Assembly (NCBI GenBank): GCA_965226435.1
Contig: CBDDCY010000008.1
Span: 415,232-479,231 of the forward strand
From: Bryobacterales bacterium
GTDB taxonomy: Bacteria; Acidobacteriota; Terriglobia; Bryobacterales; UBA6623
DNA: 64,000 bases
Direction: 5' to 3'
In this document: piece after piece, positions 32,549 through 41,471 of the stretch
Numbering within the stretch: the stretch's first letter is position 1
Layout of the letters: the number at the start of each line of letters is the position of its first letter
The notes under the pieces: generated by a model
What the model was told of the DNA's origin: nothing
Database searches by the model: none
Seen by the model: the letters and a program-made list of their open reading frames with translations, nothing else
Position numbers and translations under genes: made by a program

Positions 32549-33442
32549 CTAGAACCCTCCGGCCGCCCCGATCGCCCGCGCCGAAGTTGCCGTCCGCCAG
32601 TTGGGAAACGGGTCGCGAGCCGCCTTTTTCGCTCCCCGTACCAGGTCGGGAACGAGAGCGCGGCGTTGATAGAGGCGCTCGAGCAGACTCTCGAGTCGAT
32701 CCCACGAGCGGTCATACCATTGCGGCGGCGTGGTGCGGTAGGCTTCGTCCAAGATCGACGTCGGACACGACACAATGCGATCTAGCCAGGGTTCGAAACT
32801 TTCGAATCCCGTGACGTCCCCATAGACATCCCAGCGGTTGTAAAGTCCCAACTCAGCCGTATCGGAAAAATCCCAGTTTTGGGCGTTGAAAGCGAAGCCG
32901 TGGTCGATCATGTTCGCGACGTACACCAGCGAGCGGGGTGAAATCGCCGACTCCGGGGCCGGGCGGCCCGCCCGCAACCAATTCTTCGCGCGGTCACGGA
33001 AAAAGATCACTTGCCGGCCGTCGGCGTTGCTGACCCATTTGTCGAACGCCACCATCCCCCGAAAAGTATCGACATTCAACACCAGCCGCAGCAGGGATAG
33101 CGGCAAGTAGTCATACACGGCGCGCCGAGCGGGATCACCGGGGTAGCACGACCCGAAGTGGAGCCCGCTCTCGCAACGCAGCACGCGGCGCCCGGCTTCC
33201 ATCGTCAACTCGGGCGTTTCCTCCACCAGCCCTGGCGGCACATCGACGATTTGCCAGGCGGGAACCGGAAGCTGGAGATATTTCAGCAAGACGCAGCACA
33301 GCAACTCATTCACCAGAATGTGCTGGTGCTGCGGGTTATTGCGGAATTTGACGACGTAATAGCGATCGTCGTCAGCCAGTAATAAGTGGGCGTTCGCCCC
33401 GCCCCTCATCCGCTTGATATGTTGACGGGCAACAACCGCCAT
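32549..33442 (-). CDS. HipA-like (HipA_2-type) kinase
   Basis: RMRGGANAH, YVVKF, LVNEL, FDKWVSNADGRQ, MIDHGFAF. Confidence 0.85.
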   Translation of the reverse strand: MAVVARQHIKRMRGGANAHLLLADDDRYYVVKFRNNPQHQHILVNELLCCVLLKYLQLPVPAWQIVDVPPGLVEETPELTMEAGRRVLRCESGLHFGSCYPGDPARRAVYDYLPLSLLRLVLNVDTFRGMVAFDKWVSNADGRQVIFFRDRAKNWLRAGRPAPESAISPRSLVYVANMIDHGFAFNAQNWDFSDTAELGLYNRWDVYGDVTGFESFEPWLDRIVSCPTSILDEAYRTTPPQWYDRSWDRLESLLERLYQRRALVPDLVRGAKKAARDPFPNWRTATSARAIGAAGGF

Positions 33443-37150: not shown

Positions 37151-37588
37151 ATGCCTGTGGCTTATCCGGAATATCTGCTTTCGCCGATGCGCGAAGAGTT
37201 GTCTCGATTGGGGGTCATCGAGACGCGTACCCCCGAGCAGGTCGACGAGTTGCTTACCCCCGACAGCGGGACCGTTTTAATGGTTGTCAACTCGGTGTGC
37301 GGCTGTGCCGCCGGGTCGGCGCGACCGGGTGTCGCGCGGTCGCTGGAAAGCGAAATCAAACCCGACAAAGTCGGCACGGTTTTCGCGGGTGGTGATGTCG
37401 AAGCCGTAGCCCACTTACGACAAATCCTGTCGAACTATCCGCCGTCTTCGCCTTCGGTCGCGCTATTTCGCGACGGGAAGCCGGTCTACATGCTCCACCG
37501 CCAGGAGATCGAAGGGCGCGATCCGTCACAAATCGCGGCCATTCTACAGCAGGCCTACCAGGAACATTGCGCCGCTCCGGCGAAGTAG
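37151..37588 (+). CDS. BrxA/BrxB-family bacilliredoxin (CGC motif)
   Basis: PMREEL, VNSVCGCAAGSARPG, TVFAGGD, PPSSPSVALFRDG. Confidence 0.9.
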   Translation: MPVAYPEYLLSPMREELSRLGVIETRTPEQVDELLTPDSGTVLMVVNSVCGCAAGSARPGVARSLESEIKPDKVGTVFAGGDVEAVAHLRQILSNYPPSSPSVALFRDGKPVYMLHRQEIEGRDPSQIAAILQQAYQEHCAAPAK

Positions 37589-37720
37589 CCGGAGAGCCCG
37601 GCGCACGCGGGGGTCTTGGGGAAGATCTCACCGCCTTCTGGAGGCGCGGGACGCCCCCGCGCGTAGAACCGGCTTGAGAAGCCGGGAGGCTGTCACGACG
37701 ACTGTCGCCGGCGGCCCCTG

Positions 37721-39343
37721 TCACCACGTTCGATCAATCCCGACGACCGGCAACGACGCGCCGCTCTTGCGCAAATACACCGTCACCGTCTTGGCGGGAT
37801 CGGCTCCTTGGATCCGCGCGGCGAAGTAGGCTCCGTTTTCGCCCTCGCCGACCTCGGGCGGTAGACCAAGACCCGTTGCGCCTTCGATCGGCGAGTGCTT
37901 TTCGGCTTCGTTGTCGAATTTCGACCACTTGACTTGATACGTTTCGGACTCGGCGAAACCGTGCTTGACGGCCAGGTTCTCGAAGTCGAGCCGCCCCCCC
38001 GCCGCGCGAAAATGGTCGAGCGCCAACACGGCGCTGAAATATTTCTTTCCGACGATATCGCGCCTCTTGATGGGGCATTCGATCAACCATTCGACCGCTT
38101 CGGGGTCACTATATTGCCCTTGCTCGATGATCGCCCGAATGTGCTGATCCGAGAAAGCCATCACCTTCTTCGCCGCCCAAAAAGCATCGTCGGGCAGGCG
38201 GTTCTTGAAGGCCGGATTCGGCTCCTCGGTGGTCCATAGCTCGGGGTCGAAAACGCGATAGTCGAACTTCCCGACCGACGGGAAGTAGTTGTACTTGAGC
38301 CGATGGTAGCGCGGCGGGGCGAAGCCGAGTGTCAGGACCTGCTTCGCGGCCTTGCCCCATTCGAAAAGGTGTTCGTTGCCCGAGCGCGAGCTATTCGAGT
38401 AGACGCTGGCGCTCCCCAGAATCGAGCCGAAATCCACCAAGTGGTGCCGCACAAACGGCACCCCGTTTTCCTCGACCACCATGTCGAGCGTATTGATGGC
38501 GCGGGAGTCGTCATGCCCAAGCCAAGCGCAAAAAACAAAGAGACCGCGCAGGTCGCGGCGGTGTTCATGGGGCACAATGTCGTTGGGGTCGTCGGGCCGC
38601 GTACCGTGATAGCGGAACTCGCCGGCCGGACGGCCGCTCAGAAAATAGCTGGCGAGGCCGCGAATGCGTCCGTTTGCCGTTCGGGGAACGCGAGCCAGAA
38701 TCTTCTCGACGTCTTCCTCTCGCATCGCCTGTTCTCGGCCCTTGAGATCGGTGAGCGTCGTTCCCTCGCCGATGACCAGCTTGGGGCGGTCGAAATAGAC
38801 GATGTAATTTTCCGGGACGTCGTACCCGAGAGCGTGGAAAAACAACGACCCGACGACATCGACTGCCGTTGCCATTTCCGGGTTCGTCATGGGGTCGAAT
38901 TTAAGAATATATATCTTGCCCGTCGCGTCCTTGATCGTGAAGCCCGGCGTCACGCCCGCCGTCTTCGCGCCGACGATCGACCATTTCCCTTCTTGCGAGG
39001 GGGCATTGTCCCGCCGTGGGCCGCGCACGACCTCGTCGACGCTCATCGGCCGCGTGCCGATGCGGTTCGTAAACCAGGTGCTGTCGAGAACCTCGCCCAG
39101 CGTATTCACCGCGCCCGCGGGAATCGGCTTCGCGCCTTTCCTGAGCTCCTTGGGCTTGGGCTGCGCTTCGGCCGGCTTGCCAAAGGTCTGTAGGAAATAG
39201 TCGTAATACATCGACAGCCGCCGCTCTTCGACCATTTCGGCGGCCATTGGCGGCGGCTCGCGCGGAAGCGGGTCGTCGTCGTAGAACTTCTTCGCGCCGG
39301 CGGGCAACGCCAAGATCAGAAACAACAAGAAGGCTTTCTTCAT
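37721..39343 (-). CDS. Exported protein with atypical (HipA/PI3K-like) kinase motifs
   Basis: Signal peptide MKKAFLLFLILALPAGA; GVTPGF, YILKFDP, PEMAT, WLGHDDSRAIN, HHLVDFGS. Confidence 0.65.
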   Translation of the reverse strand: MKKAFLLFLILALPAGAKKFYDDDPLPREPPPMAAEMVEERRLSMYYDYFLQTFGKPAEAQPKPKELRKGAKPIPAGAVNTLGEVLDSTWFTNRIGTRPMSVDEVVRGPRRDNAPSQEGKWSIVGAKTAGVTPGFTIKDATGKIYILKFDPMTNPEMATAVDVVGSLFFHALGYDVPENYIVYFDRPKLVIGEGTTLTDLKGREQAMREEDVEKILARVPRTANGRIRGLASYFLSGRPAGEFRYHGTRPDDPNDIVPHEHRRDLRGLFVFCAWLGHDDSRAINTLDMVVEENGVPFVRHHLVDFGSILGSASVYSNSSRSGNEHLFEWGKAAKQVLTLGFAPPRYHRLKYNYFPSVGKFDYRVFDPELWTTEEPNPAFKNRLPDDAFWAAKKVMAFSDQHIRAIIEQGQYSDPEAVEWLIECPIKRRDIVGKKYFSAVLALDHFRAAGGRLDFENLAVKHGFAESETYQVKWSKFDNEAEKHSPIEGATGLGLPPEVGEGENGAYFAARIQGADPAKTVTVYLRKSGASLPVVGIDRTW

Positions 39344-39353
39344 CGCTGCGTCC

Positions 39354-40604
39354 TTAGAACGGGTTCCCGAATTTGAACCATATCTGATACCCCTCGCGGC
39401 TGAATCCGAAATCAAGCCGGAGAAAGACCTTGTTTCTGCCATTGAATCGAAAGCCGATTCCATACGACGTCTCCAGGCCGTGGAGATTGATCTGGGTACG
39501 GCGGGGCGTCACTTTCCCGGCGTCGAAAAACAGCGCCATGTCCAAACCCGGAAACGATTCCCAGCGGTATTCGGCGTTGAAGATGACGTGATTGTCGTCG
39601 TAAAACCGGTAGGTGCGAAAACCACGCAAGTCCTCCGAGCCCCCCAGGTAGGGCTGCATGTAGAAGGGCACTGACTGCCCGTCGATCGACCACGTCATCA
39701 CCGTGCGGCCGCGCAGCGCGAAGACCCGTTTATCGTTGAAGAACGGGATGTATTGCTGCACTTCCAGATCGAGCCGCCGAAACGTGTGCAGATCGATGCG
39801 CTGGTCGTCGTAGTAGAGAAAGCGCGCCGAGTAAAATCCTCCCGAGCGCGGACCGCCCTCAATGTCGCGGTAGTCGACTTCCACAAACCCGCCGGCGCGC
39901 AAAAAATCGGTCTGCCGCAGAATCCCCGGGCTGACGGCGGGGCTGTAAAGTTGGTCGGCCGACTCGTCGCCCGGCGGGCCGGGACCGATGTTGAATTGCA
40001 AATATCCTCCGGTGAGTCCCATTCGAAAAAACTCAGCGGGCCGGAAAGCGGCGTCGGCGTCGAATGACGTTCGCTCCAACCTATAGGCGGATTCACCCTC
40101 GACGCGGGAGTCCGGCCCGGGTCCGTAGTAATCCATCTCCGGGAAATTGCTGTGCACGGCCGCCAGATGGACGGGAAACCTTCCACCGGCGAGGTTGGGG
40201 AGATCGGCCAAGAGTTCGAACTGATATGCCTTCTTGGCCGATGCGACCGCGAAAGTCGACACCTTCAGGTCGCCGCCGGTCGTCCGGTAGGTGTACCCTG
40301 GGCCCAGCGCAAAGCCTTGCCCTGTGGCCAAGCCGCCGAAGCGCCCTCGCCAGCCTCCCAGCCCGGCCGCCAGCCGTTCCAGGTAGTTGGTGTCTTCCAC
40401 CTTGTGCATGACCTTTTCGATCTTGCCCGAGATCGGTTTGGTCAGTTTCTTGGCTTTTTCACTACGCGCCTGCTCGATGGCCTCGGCTCGCGAGGTGGGT
40501 TCGGGTTGCGCGGCCGGGTTGGAATCGCCGGATTCGTCCTGAGCTGGCAACGAGACTGCCATCACGATCAGGGGCAAAGCAATCCGCCGGAGTCGTCGGA
40601 TCAT
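39354..40604 (-). CDS. Omp85 (BamA/TamA-family) outer-membrane beta-barrel without obvious POTRA domains
   Basis: Signal peptide; LGGSEDLRGF..YRF, FNAEYRW, LFFDAGKV, YGIGFRF, C-terminal aromatic FKFGNPF. Confidence 0.85.
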   Translation of the reverse strand: MIRRLRRIALPLIVMAVSLPAQDESGDSNPAAQPEPTSRAEAIEQARSEKAKKLTKPISGKIEKVMHKVEDTNYLERLAAGLGGWRGRFGGLATGQGFALGPGYTYRTTGGDLKVSTFAVASAKKAYQFELLADLPNLAGGRFPVHLAAVHSNFPEMDYYGPGPDSRVEGESAYRLERTSFDADAAFRPAEFFRMGLTGGYLQFNIGPGPPGDESADQLYSPAVSPGILRQTDFLRAGGFVEVDYRDIEGGPRSGGFYSARFLYYDDQRIDLHTFRRLDLEVQQYIPFFNDKRVFALRGRTVMTWSIDGQSVPFYMQPYLGGSEDLRGFRTYRFYDDNHVIFNAEYRWESFPGLDMALFFDAGKVTPRRTQINLHGLETSYGIGFRFNGRNKVFLRLDFGFSREGYQIWFKFGNPF

Positions 40605-40798
40605 GATGGAGCGGGAGTCGGAGATCATGATCTTCCGGGGCGTGGAAAAGACCGCCTTAATGCCGCTTGGCGGAAACCGCGTCCGCGACGCGACCGAAAC
40701 AAGCTTCTAATCTATCACGCCTTTCCGGGAGTGGAAGCCAAGAGCCGGTGCTACACGACTTGGCGGAACCGAAGGACAGATCATCCGACCGCCCGTTA

Positions 40799-40828
40799 AT
40801 ACGTATGATATACTGAAAGATACGTATC
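40799..40828 (+). promoter_or_regulatory. Tandem palindromic operators of the TA operon
   Basis: ATACGTAT at 40799-40806 and GATACGTATC at 40819-40828, just before ATG 40837. Confidence 0.6.
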
Positions 40829-40836
40829 CTTTCGCC

Positions 40837-41058
40837 ATGAAAGCTAAGCTCACCGTTAGCATCGATGCCGACCTTTTGTCGCCGGCGAAAGAGGCGGCCC
40901 GCCGGCGAGGTGTTTCTTTGTCGAGCTACATCGAAGGCGCGCTTCGAACATTGAGCAGCGATCGCAAGCAATCTTTTGCGGAAAAGTGGCGCGGCAGCTT
41001 CCGACCCGCCGAACGGGACGAGGAACGTTACCGCCGGCTGGCGAAAAAATACTTGTGA
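40837..41058 (+). CDS. RHH-like antitoxin (DUF6364-like)
   Basis: MKAKLTVSIDADLL..AKEAARRRGVSLSSYIE; GTGA overlap with the PIN gene. Confidence 0.85.
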   Translation: MKAKLTVSIDADLLSPAKEAARRRGVSLSSYIEGALRTLSSDRKQSFAEKWRGSFRPAERDEERYRRLAKKYL

Positions 41059-41471
41059 CCCTGCTCCTTGATCTCGACGTGATCCTCGATCTGATCCTAG
41101 ATCGTGAGCCCTATTCCGCACCCGCCGCCGAATTGCTGGGGATGATCGAGACGCGTCCAGGTTCGGCCTTCATCGCGTGGCACTCCATCTCGAACTTCGT
41201 TTATCTGTCGGCTCGCCGCCACGGCCGCAAAACTTCCAAGCAATTCATCGTGGATTTATGCCGCTTCGTAGCGGTCGCGAAGACGGACACCGAAAGCCTT
41301 CGCTATGCGGCGGGACTCGCGATGAGCGATTTCGAGGACGCCATGCAGGTCGCGGCGGCGGCGGCGTGCGGCGCTGACGTCATTGTCACGAGAAATCTTC
41401 GGGACTACCGCCGTTCGCCTATCCGTGCCGCGGCTCCGGGCGACGTGATACCCGAGTTGAGACGAGCTTAG
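41055..41471 (+). CDS. PIN-domain (VapC-like) toxin
   Basis: LLDLDVILDLILDREP, SDFEDAMQVAAA, IVTRNLRDY. Confidence 0.88.
   Translation: MTLLLDLDVILDLILDREPYSAPAAELLGMIETRPGSAFIAWHSISNFVYLSARRHGRKTSKQFIVDLCRFVAVAKTDTESLRYAAGLAMSDFEDAMQVAAAAACGADVIVTRNLRDYRRSPIRAAAPGDVIPELRRA

Follow-up and report, generated by a model that had tools for sequence, protein, structure and literature searches.

In a 64,000-nucleotide (nt) stretch of DNA from a Bryobacterales bacterium (GCA_965226435.1, contig CBDDCY010000008.1, positions 415,232–479,231 of the forward strand; hereafter the window), a gene for an Omp85-superfamily β-barrel that has no POTRA domains is followed, after 10 base pairs (bp), by a gene for a protein with a signal peptide and a predicted kinase-like fold. 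Homologues of the two genes lie side by side in nearly every locus that we sampled, which supports a conserved module in which the kinase-like protein is obligatorily linked to a dedicated barrel. The large unannotated family to which this protein belongs combines an export signal with a kinase active site that is intact, an obligatory private Omp85 barrel and recurrent neighbours that resemble ATP-supply and phosphatase proteins. The best reading that we can offer, and to which we give about even chances, is a periplasmic, nucleotide-dependent phosphotransfer module in which the kinase works with its own barrel.

A conserved pair of barrel and kinase-like genes

The kinase-like protein gave no significant sequence match in Pfam, NCBIfam or the PDB, and searches of PDB sequences with the protein and two profiles returned chance matches only (Tctex1 and pyruvate carboxylase). 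An AlphaFold2 (AF2) model built from 40 homologues (pLDDT 88, pTM 0.89) was compared with known structures by Foldseek, and the named best PDB matches are kinase-like: CtkA, Fam20C, HipT, Rio2 and PI4KII-alpha. The best of these is CtkA (3akk; E 2e-4, probability 1.0, TM-score 0.50 on the target), and several of the 50 best matches among viral models are annotated kinases. The model also agrees with the motifs read in the sequence, in that the strand at residues 144–148 ends in K148, a helix begins at E156/M157 and a hairpin leads to D304-F-G. By model and motifs, the protein is thus predicted to fold as a kinase-like enzyme with a complete catalytic set.

Conservation was assessed in 150 cluster representatives (50% identity; 151 sequences in the alignment counts). 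Among the representatives, K148 is kept in 84%, D150 in 94%, E156 in 72%, D279 in 86%, N284 in 91% and D304 in 97%; in the glycine-rich loop, K127 is present in 127 of the 151 sequences, G130 in 139 (92%) and G134 in 129. Among 40 closer relatives (54–92% identity) the catalytic residues are invariant. Such strict conservation of the catalytic base and of both metal ligands argues for phosphotransfer and not for mere binding. K148 is the putative ATP-binding lysine, and E156 may be its salt-bridge partner, an assignment that is uncertain. Outside the classical motifs, the family carries a hallmark segment of the pattern GTRxDDPND..PHEHRRxLRG; its H259, R263 and R266 are present in all 151 sequences, and it is likely to form a metal-binding or anionic-substrate site. 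Together, the modelled fold and the catalytic set would place the protein in the superfamily of protein-kinase-like (PKL) proteins, with a predicted enzymatic activity.

Family members that have no catalytic aspartate are probably pseudoenzymes. Among them are long homologues of 742–1158 amino acids (aa) (P0141, P0193 and P0200) and, in a survey of genomes, frames of 900–1476 aa, a subfamily marked by an additional domain of some 400 aa at the C-terminus that has no Pfam match. HAVVS, HTLAR or HYLCN stands in place of HDDSR in these long forms, which are probably pseudokinases with a new domain. Two 969-aa homologues (P0141 and P0149) were considered as fusions of a kinase to an Omp85 barrel, in the manner of PlpD, and were rejected: they too had no Pfam match, and P0141 gave nothing in a BLAST comparison with the barrel.

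The family is large. A search of a word-indexed collection recovered 6,110 proteins at E ≤ 0.001 among 8,000 candidates scored, and in an exhaustive search the family numbered at least 3,205 clusters (50% identity), of which 890 reached E ≤ 1e-30. Those relatives that public sources name are all called 'hypothetical protein'. In a survey of Acidobacteriota, the kinase was found in 62 of 301 genomes and 43 of 186 genera, a patchy distribution; a genome can hold as many as four matching stretches, of which some are fragments of one gene. Among these 301 genomes it is absent from one large family of the same class.

Linkage to a barrel was examined in 80 loci, one genome per species, which were found with an alignment of close homologues and are biased towards Acidobacteriota. 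In a profile search, 79 of the 80 loci proved to have a barrel homologue on the strand of the kinase gene, and in 77 the two are adjacent, with the barrel mostly upstream and in three cases downstream; barrel and kinase are separate genes in all 80. Three homologues with 54–64% identity lie in unrelated surroundings, with flanking genes that vary from locus to locus, and each is immediately preceded by an Omp85 gene of about 418 aa (by two in tandem in one case). The pairing extends to distant relatives. A Marinimicrobia metagenome-assembled genome (MAG) (GCA_022567735.1; L095, 4537–8993) encodes in a row an Omp85 protein (482 aa), a kinase-like protein (570 aa, 35% identity) and a phosphoesterase of the Metallophos family, and another relative with 35% identity has an upstream barrel homologue (hhalign probability 99.9%).

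A sequence-only reading of this DNA had coupled a dedicated barrel to an exported atypical kinase, and had staked this coupling on a kinase-like fold, conserved catalytic residues and co-occurrence of the genes elsewhere. The coupling holds on all three counts: the AF2 model returns kinase-like matches in Foldseek, the catalytic residues are kept in 72–97% of the 150 representatives, and a barrel accompanies the kinase in 79 of 80 loci and in the distant relatives.

Copy number varies among loci. Two tandem barrel genes precede one kinase gene at L005/L015 (2460–4985), and tandem kinase genes occur elsewhere (among L026, L031 and L038); at L026, two tandem kinase genes have no barrel gene within 6 kb. 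Close copies also occur on contigs with the labels Rhodospirillales, Arcobacter and Calditrichaceae (L075, L085 and L086), and these may be mis-binned.

Features of the two proteins and their locus

On the minus strand of the window, the barrel gene comes first and the kinase-like gene second, in the same orientation. The features of the pair are as follows.

39354–40628, minus strand: gene of the POTRA-less ('noNterm') Omp85 barrel, encoding 424 aa if read from the first ATG; from the open reading frame (ORF), Pfam, AF2 and Foldseek
40539–40604, minus strand: predicted signal peptide of the barrel protein, MIRRLRRIALPLIVMAVSLPAQ; its translation has a basic start, a hydrophobic core and small residues ahead of the cleavage site
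40359–40496, minus strand: N-terminal helical segment, predicted periplasmic, residues 45–90, with helices at 47–60 and 69–88 and R47, R55 and E71 invariant in the alignment
39369–40352, minus strand: predicted 16-stranded β-barrel, residues 93–420, from the AF2 secondary structure
39618–39629, minus strand: loop-6 lid motif LRGF, residues 334–337, with R335 and G336 invariant
39516–39530, minus strand: lid-lock motif FFDAG (FxDxG), residues 367–371, with D369 and G371 invariant
39344–39353, minus strand: spacer between the two genes, GGACGCAGCG, exactly 10 bp
37721–39343, minus strand: kinase-like gene, 540 aa and stop, from the ORF
39293–39343, minus strand: predicted Sec signal peptide, MKKAFLLFLILALPAGA, at the start of the kinase-like protein; the translation shows no lipobox cysteine
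38939–38965, minus strand: putative glycine-rich loop KTAGVTPGF, residues 127–135, between strands 121–126 and 134–138
38873–38908, minus strand: predicted strand 3, ILKFD (K148 and D150), then PEM (E156) opening helix C, from the model and conservation
38543–38605, minus strand: family-specific hallmark segment, GTRPDDPNDIVPHEHRRDLRG, residues 247–267
38492–38515, minus strand: predicted catalytic loop HDDSRAIN, H277–N284, with D279 as catalytic base and N284 as metal ligand, after a helix at 263–275 as in kinase-like folds
38426–38434, minus strand: DFG motif, residues 304–306, with D304 as predicted metal ligand, followed by a disordered activation-like segment at 307–328
37724–38020, minus strand: predicted C-terminal β-sandwich, residues 442–540, ending in the conserved GIDRTW, from the model and alignment

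The barrel protein matches Pfam Omp85 (PF01103) with E 4e-12 and 46.6 bits (cut-off 24), and its AF2 model from 43 homologues (pLDDT 84, pTM 0.74) has 16 strands. Before strand 1 the model holds only about 65 residues, with helices of low confidence, which leaves no room for a POTRA domain, and no Pfam match to POTRA was found in the protein. Foldseek returned TamA and BamA barrels as the best matches (E 2e-12), with a TM-score of 0.77 to the barrel-only TamA structure 8us4, and no FhaC/TpsB chain was among the 50 best. All NCBIfam scores fall below their cut-offs (given in brackets): 34 bits for TIGR03303 (297), 27 for NF052279, or TamL (400), and 94 for NF047779, or Omp85_fam (200). The FxDxG motif has been defined in previous work (PMC11358297 and PMC4490367), and by analogy with published Omp85 structures FFDAG would sit on strand 13. 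From its sequence and model we assign the barrel to the 'noNterm' architecture of the Omp85 superfamily, an assignment made by architecture. Residues 45–90 are a candidate docking site for the kinase.

For the kinase-like protein, the motif [KR]-F-Y-x-D-D-P could be located in 39 of 40 alignment members, and in 37 of these a signal peptide ends just before it; this conserved signal peptide points to export through Sec to the periplasm. Behind it lies a family-specific N-terminal extension of about 100 residues, recognizable by FYDDDP... and NTLGEV.DS.WF.NR, and in the AF2 model the N-terminal 100 residues pack on the kinase core.

AAGGA, a Shine–Dalgarno-like sequence, overlaps the TAA stop of the barrel gene; spacer and overlap together suggest translational coupling or a common operon. 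The true start of the barrel is probably Met9 at 40604, which would give a protein of 416 aa. Scans of 37300–41100 detected no promoter-like site, and terminator-like sites were no more frequent than expected by chance. What had been read from the sequence was borne out by these data: two co-oriented genes 10 bp apart, seen again in the ORFs and the spacer; signal peptides on both proteins, recovered by translation as MIRRLRRIALPLIVMAVSLPAQ and MKKAFLLFLILALPAGA; a barrel of about 415 aa with LRGF and no space for POTRA domains, which agrees with the Pfam match, the 416-aa start and the AF2 model; and a complete kinase catalytic set in a protein of about 540 aa, for which GVTPG, ILKFD, PEM, HDDSRAIN and DFG were verified by translation.

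The genome that holds the window has one copy of the kinase gene, and the genes flanking the pair are unrelated, housekeeping or mobile. Upstream are a dihydroorotase gene (pyrC) and ORFs that we take to be pyrB and pyrR; these are separated from the barrel gene by a PIN_3 (VapC-like) toxin gene (40986–41471, plus strand), which is oriented opposite to the barrel gene. Downstream are bacilliredoxin-like, DUF72, thioesterase and cytoplasmic HipA_2 genes. The HipA_2-type kinase gene (PF20613, E 4.5e-12; 32549–33442, minus strand) shares its strand with the exported kinase gene, from which it is 4.3 kb downstream, and its product has no signal peptide and is cytoplasmic. It was considered as a relative of the exported kinase and rejected (hhalign probability 0.8%); it is not kept beside the pair in other loci, and we treat its proximity as a coincidence. 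The closest public relatives, at 93% identity, are Acidobacteriota MAGs labelled Bryobacterales. Public DNA runs that hold the exact stretch 37721–40628 include sponge metagenomes (X12 and X20), and the organism may live in association with sponges. Among RNA runs, none was identified that contains the stretch.

Neighbouring transporter-like and phosphoesterase genes

An all-against-all BLAST of neighbouring genes missed two families, TLC-like transporters and Metallophos phosphoesterases, both of which were recovered by iterative profile searches. TLC-like genes, related to the NTT nucleotide transporters, occur within 6 kb of the pair in 41 of the 80 loci, for which rough arithmetic gives a chance expectation of less than 1%. 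Eight neighbours or own-genome copies score 29–85 bits against PF03219, above its cut-off of 21, and there was no match to this profile in 14 control genomes. The TLC-like proteins come in two forms, a short one of about 460 aa and a long one with HEAT repeats, and their genes are arranged directly downstream on the same strand, divergently upstream or co-oriented upstream. This variety of arrangements argues for selection and not for mere inheritance of one ancestral order. Across the 301 genomes, a TLC match is present in 52 of 62 with the kinase and in 39 of 239 without it (odds ratio 26.7, Fisher p 2e-23, uncorrected for kinship).

A canonical NTT gene found in the survey (G212:C54:24385–25833) scores 576 bits; set against the 29–85 bits of the linked transporters, this marks the latter as a distinct, divergent TLC branch. 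The window's locus consists of the two-gene core only, with no TLC-like or phosphoesterase gene at the pair, and TLC-like genes of both forms lie on other contigs of the same genome. Orthology of these own-genome genes with the kinase-linked ones was considered and could not be established, at 28–29% identity.

One subclade of nine loci (L022, L044, L052, L065, L067, L072, L078, L082 and L085) has a larger cluster of barrel, kinase, short TLC, a convergent long TLC-like gene and a Hanks-type Ser/Thr kinase gene, sometimes with PAP2 last, and a histidine kinase gene also sometimes recurs. The long TLC-like gene of L044 has TLC and MFS matches and no HEAT match. In these loci the cytoplasmic Hanks-type signalling kinase may be wired to the module.

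Phosphoesterases form the second group of neighbours. PAP2 genes occur in 15 of the 80 loci and Metallophos genes in 19, with no locus holding both (34 of 80 in total), and most of them lie directly downstream of the kinase gene; many of the linked Metallophos proteins have signal peptides. If the two families were distributed independently, about 3.6 shared loci would be expected by rough arithmetic, and none was observed. This pattern suggests that PAP2 and Metallophos are interchangeable 'eraser' enzymes. The usual targets are lipid-linked phosphates for relatives of PAP2 and phosphoproteins or nucleotides for relatives of Metallophos, so that neither settles the substrate of the kinase. 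The predicted mature N-termini of linked Metallophos proteins (L014, L042 and L055) begin QKFY or QKYY, much like the mature start of the kinase, [KR]KFYDDDP; the likeness could be a coincidence or a shared sorting or recognition motif.

In one lineage the kinase-like and PAP2 domains are joined. Six cluster representatives, which come from independent samples in Logan, ENA and JGI, have a Pfam match to PAP2 after a kinase-like domain, and in three of these fusions (P0240, P0413 and P0414) the kinase domain was confirmed, with D-x4-N and DF[GS] kept. A linker and the PAP2 domain stand in place of the C-terminal β-sandwich. In both fusion loci examined, a gene of 460–464 aa lies directly upstream and overlaps the start of the fusion gene, and in the one locus in which it was tested this gene is a barrel homologue (hhalign probability 96.8%). 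Enzymes of the PAP2 type are helical proteins of the inner membrane whose active sites face the periplasm, so the fusion would fix the kinase domain in the periplasm, at the inner membrane; with such a tether in place and the barrel gene kept, the barrel cannot be the export pore of the kinase in this lineage.

A possible phosphotransfer module and its relation to known systems

On the reading that we favour, the 540-aa protein would reach the periplasm through Sec, fold as a kinase-like enzyme and move phosphate from a nucleotide, most likely ATP, to a component of the cell envelope, for which a protein, a lipid-linked phosphate or a glycan are candidates. The 16-stranded TamA/BamA-like barrel would most likely serve as a docking platform, target or gate, rather than as a pore for export. 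TLC/NTT-type inner-membrane proteins, present in about half of the related genomes, could swap cytoplasmic ATP for periplasmic ADP, and in about 40% of the loci an exported PAP2 or Metallophos phosphoesterase would reverse the modification. The sequence-only reading had left the place of action between periplasm and surface; the NTT-like transporters and exported phosphoesterases favour the first over the second.

Several points weigh against a periplasmic phosphotransfer module. The fold matches are remote, with a TM-score of 0.3 on the query and 9–14% identity, and the catalytic aspartate is missing in about 14% of the representatives, the long fusion forms included. The role of the barrel is wholly a matter of inference. 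As for ATP supply, the association of kinase and TLC genes across genomes ignores shared ancestry, and the TLC matches are distant (29–85 bits against 576 for the canonical NTT of the same phylum); the direction and substrate of these transporters cannot be read from sequence. Ten of the 62 kinase genomes have no TLC match, and the bare pair is all that is present in 27 of the 80 loci, the window's included. The TLC-like genes of the window's own genome are unlinked and only 28–29% identical to the linked ones, which weakens the supply argument for this organism. Finally, we know of no ATP pool in the bacterial periplasm.

Four other explanations compete with this one. In the first, which we consider unlikely, the neighbourhood serves scavenging: phosphoesterases would hydrolyse captured nucleotides or organophosphates, TLC-like proteins would import, and the kinase-fold protein would bind or process nucleotides in the periplasm. 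The characterised NTTs are indeed all importers (PMC5381601), the exported Metallophos and PAP2 enzymes include general phosphomonoesterases, and the neighbours are all linked to nucleotides or phosphate. Such a role is, however, at odds with a catalytic base and two metal ligands that are strictly conserved, which points to phosphotransfer, and with a TamA/BamA-like barrel whose closed lid offers no obvious uptake channel; nor does it sit well with the 27 of 80 loci, including the window's, in which the core pair has neither transporter nor phosphatase, and the kinase–PAP2 fusion would be hard to account for. Quite unlikely, too, is surface display or secretion, in which the barrel would carry or anchor the kinase across the outer membrane to act on the surface or on other cells. 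A barrel gene followed tightly by its partner is the usual order in TpsB/TpsA operons, CtkA, as the closest relative in structure, is itself a kinase that is secreted, GIDRTW supplies a conserved terminal aromatic residue as in outer-membrane-targeted proteins, and the occurrence of the stretch in sponge metagenome runs makes a host-directed role conceivable. Yet the barrel has no POTRA domain and is TamA/BamA-like, with no FhaC/TpsB among its 50 best matches, its partner has no two-partner secretion (TPS) domain, and no barrel fusion was seen among the long homologues checked. There is, moreover, no ATP source outside the cell, whereas a cycle in the periplasm would suit the linked TLC-like transporters and exported phosphoesterases, and the PAP2 fusion tethers the kinase to the inner membrane while the barrel gene is kept. 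Two-partner export after the fashion of TpsB/TpsA or PlpD, which had been proposed from the sequence, was not upheld in view of the missing POTRA domains, the TamA/BamA-like model, the absence of a Pfam TPS domain and the PAP2 fusion lineage.

The remaining two explanations keep the proteins where we place them and change what the kinase-like protein does. Atypical kinase-like families often catalyse other reactions, as SelO and SidJ do, and the protein could perform AMPylation, UMPylation or another nucleotide transfer in the same compartment. The invariant H259/R263/R266 cluster outside the classical motifs and the many different nucleotides carried by NTT families (PMC5381601) speak for this; we nevertheless find it improbable, given that HxD...N and DFG together with the strand-3 lysine and glycine-rich loop form a phosphotransfer configuration and that the closest structures are true kinases. 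Least probable of the four is a non-catalytic partner, in which the kinase-fold protein would replace the missing POTRA domains of a barrel that acts as a specialised insertase. It would suit a barrel that is insertase-like and has no periplasmic domain of its own, as well as the loss of the catalytic aspartate in about 14% of the family, long fusions included, but it leaves the link to nucleotide transporters and phosphoesterases unexplained, and catalytic residues kept in 84–97% of divergent members go beyond the needs of a scaffold. A purely structural role is unlikely because the active site is so well conserved.

If the periplasmic phosphotransfer reading is extended, free-living double-membrane bacteria (Acidobacteriota, Marinimicrobia and probably others) may run periplasmic phosphorylation with a barrel-docked, Sec-exported kinase, ATP supplied by NTT-like proteins and reversal by PAP2 or Metallophos enzymes. 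We put this wider proposal forward tentatively, at clearly less than even chances. Textbooks describe the periplasm as free of ATP, and regulated phosphorylation is not expected there. If true, the proposal would give bacteria a counterpart of the eukaryotic secretory-pathway kinases and would imply a managed periplasmic pool of ATP, whose usability would become directly testable with defined genes; it would also add a new layer of envelope biology to abundant soil, groundwater and marine bacteria.

Among known kinases, Helicobacter pylori CtkA (JHP0940; 3akj and 3akk) and HipA/HipT share with the exported family the kinase-like core, HxD...N and DFG-type motifs, and CtkA likewise leaves the cytoplasm. 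The exported family differs from CtkA and HipA in its Sec signal, about 100 extra conserved residues at the N-terminus, the hallmark GTRxDDPND...HEHRRxLRG, the C-terminal β-sandwich and the obligatory Omp85 partner; to our knowledge, CtkA and HipA have none of these five features. The HipA-type profiles PF07804 and PF20613 did not match the window protein, and HipA_2 appeared below threshold in 6 of the 40 members (best E 0.0075). The second-best structural matches are Fam20C and Fam20B (4kqb, 5yh0 and 5xom; E 4e-4 to 3e-3). Like the exported family, Fam20 proteins have a signal peptide and a kinase-like fold and work in a compartment without ATP synthesis of its own, and the import of ATP into that compartment may have its parallel in the NTT-like neighbours. 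Fam20 enzymes are, by contrast, eukaryotic proteins of the Golgi lumen with no membrane-barrel partner and only 9–11% identity to the exported kinase, and none of the 40 members gave a Pfam match to Fam20C or CotH at E ≤ 10. The kinase-like family beside PAP2 that is described in a 2026 survey of such domains is a different one and is cytoplasmic.

On the barrel side, two-partner secretion systems (TpsB/TpsA and FhaC/FHA) and PlpD share with the pair the lid motifs and an Omp85 barrel gene directly upstream of an exported partner. TpsB, however, has an N-terminal plug helix and two POTRA domains, whereas the barrel described here has no POTRA domain, and no Pfam match to the TPS (haemagglutination activity) domain was found on the kinase-like protein or its 40 relatives; in PlpD, passenger and barrel form one polypeptide joined by a POTRA domain, whereas here they are separate genes. 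The BamA and TamA insertases have three to five POTRA domains, and the window barrel falls far below the equivalog cut-offs. The architecture of the barrel is that of the noNterm Omp85 proteins (Heinz and Lithgow 2014, PMC4104836; Leptospira paralogues, PMC11358297), with 16 strands, a short periplasmic N-terminus and LRG[FY]/FxDxG. Their function is stated to be poorly understood in these papers (PMC4104836 and PMC11358297), which report no kinase-like partner; the word 'kinase' is absent from PMC11358297. NTT and NTT-HEAT proteins are likewise described as widespread in free-living bacteria and of unknown function (Major et al. 2017, PMC5381601); the accessory TLC genes have the same short and HEAT architectures, and that study, in which the word 'export' is absent, draws no link to an exported kinase or to Omp85.

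Full-text searches of the literature on Omp85, secreted or periplasmic kinases, free-living NTTs and kinase-like families found no description of the family or of the pairing. The parts belong to known superfamilies, but the system as a whole matches no described kind. If the proposal is true, it would provide a first function for free-living NTT and NTT-HEAT proteins and a first partner for noNterm Omp85 barrels; even if the chemistry proves different, the conserved pair of barrel and enzyme would be a new kind of Omp85 partnership.

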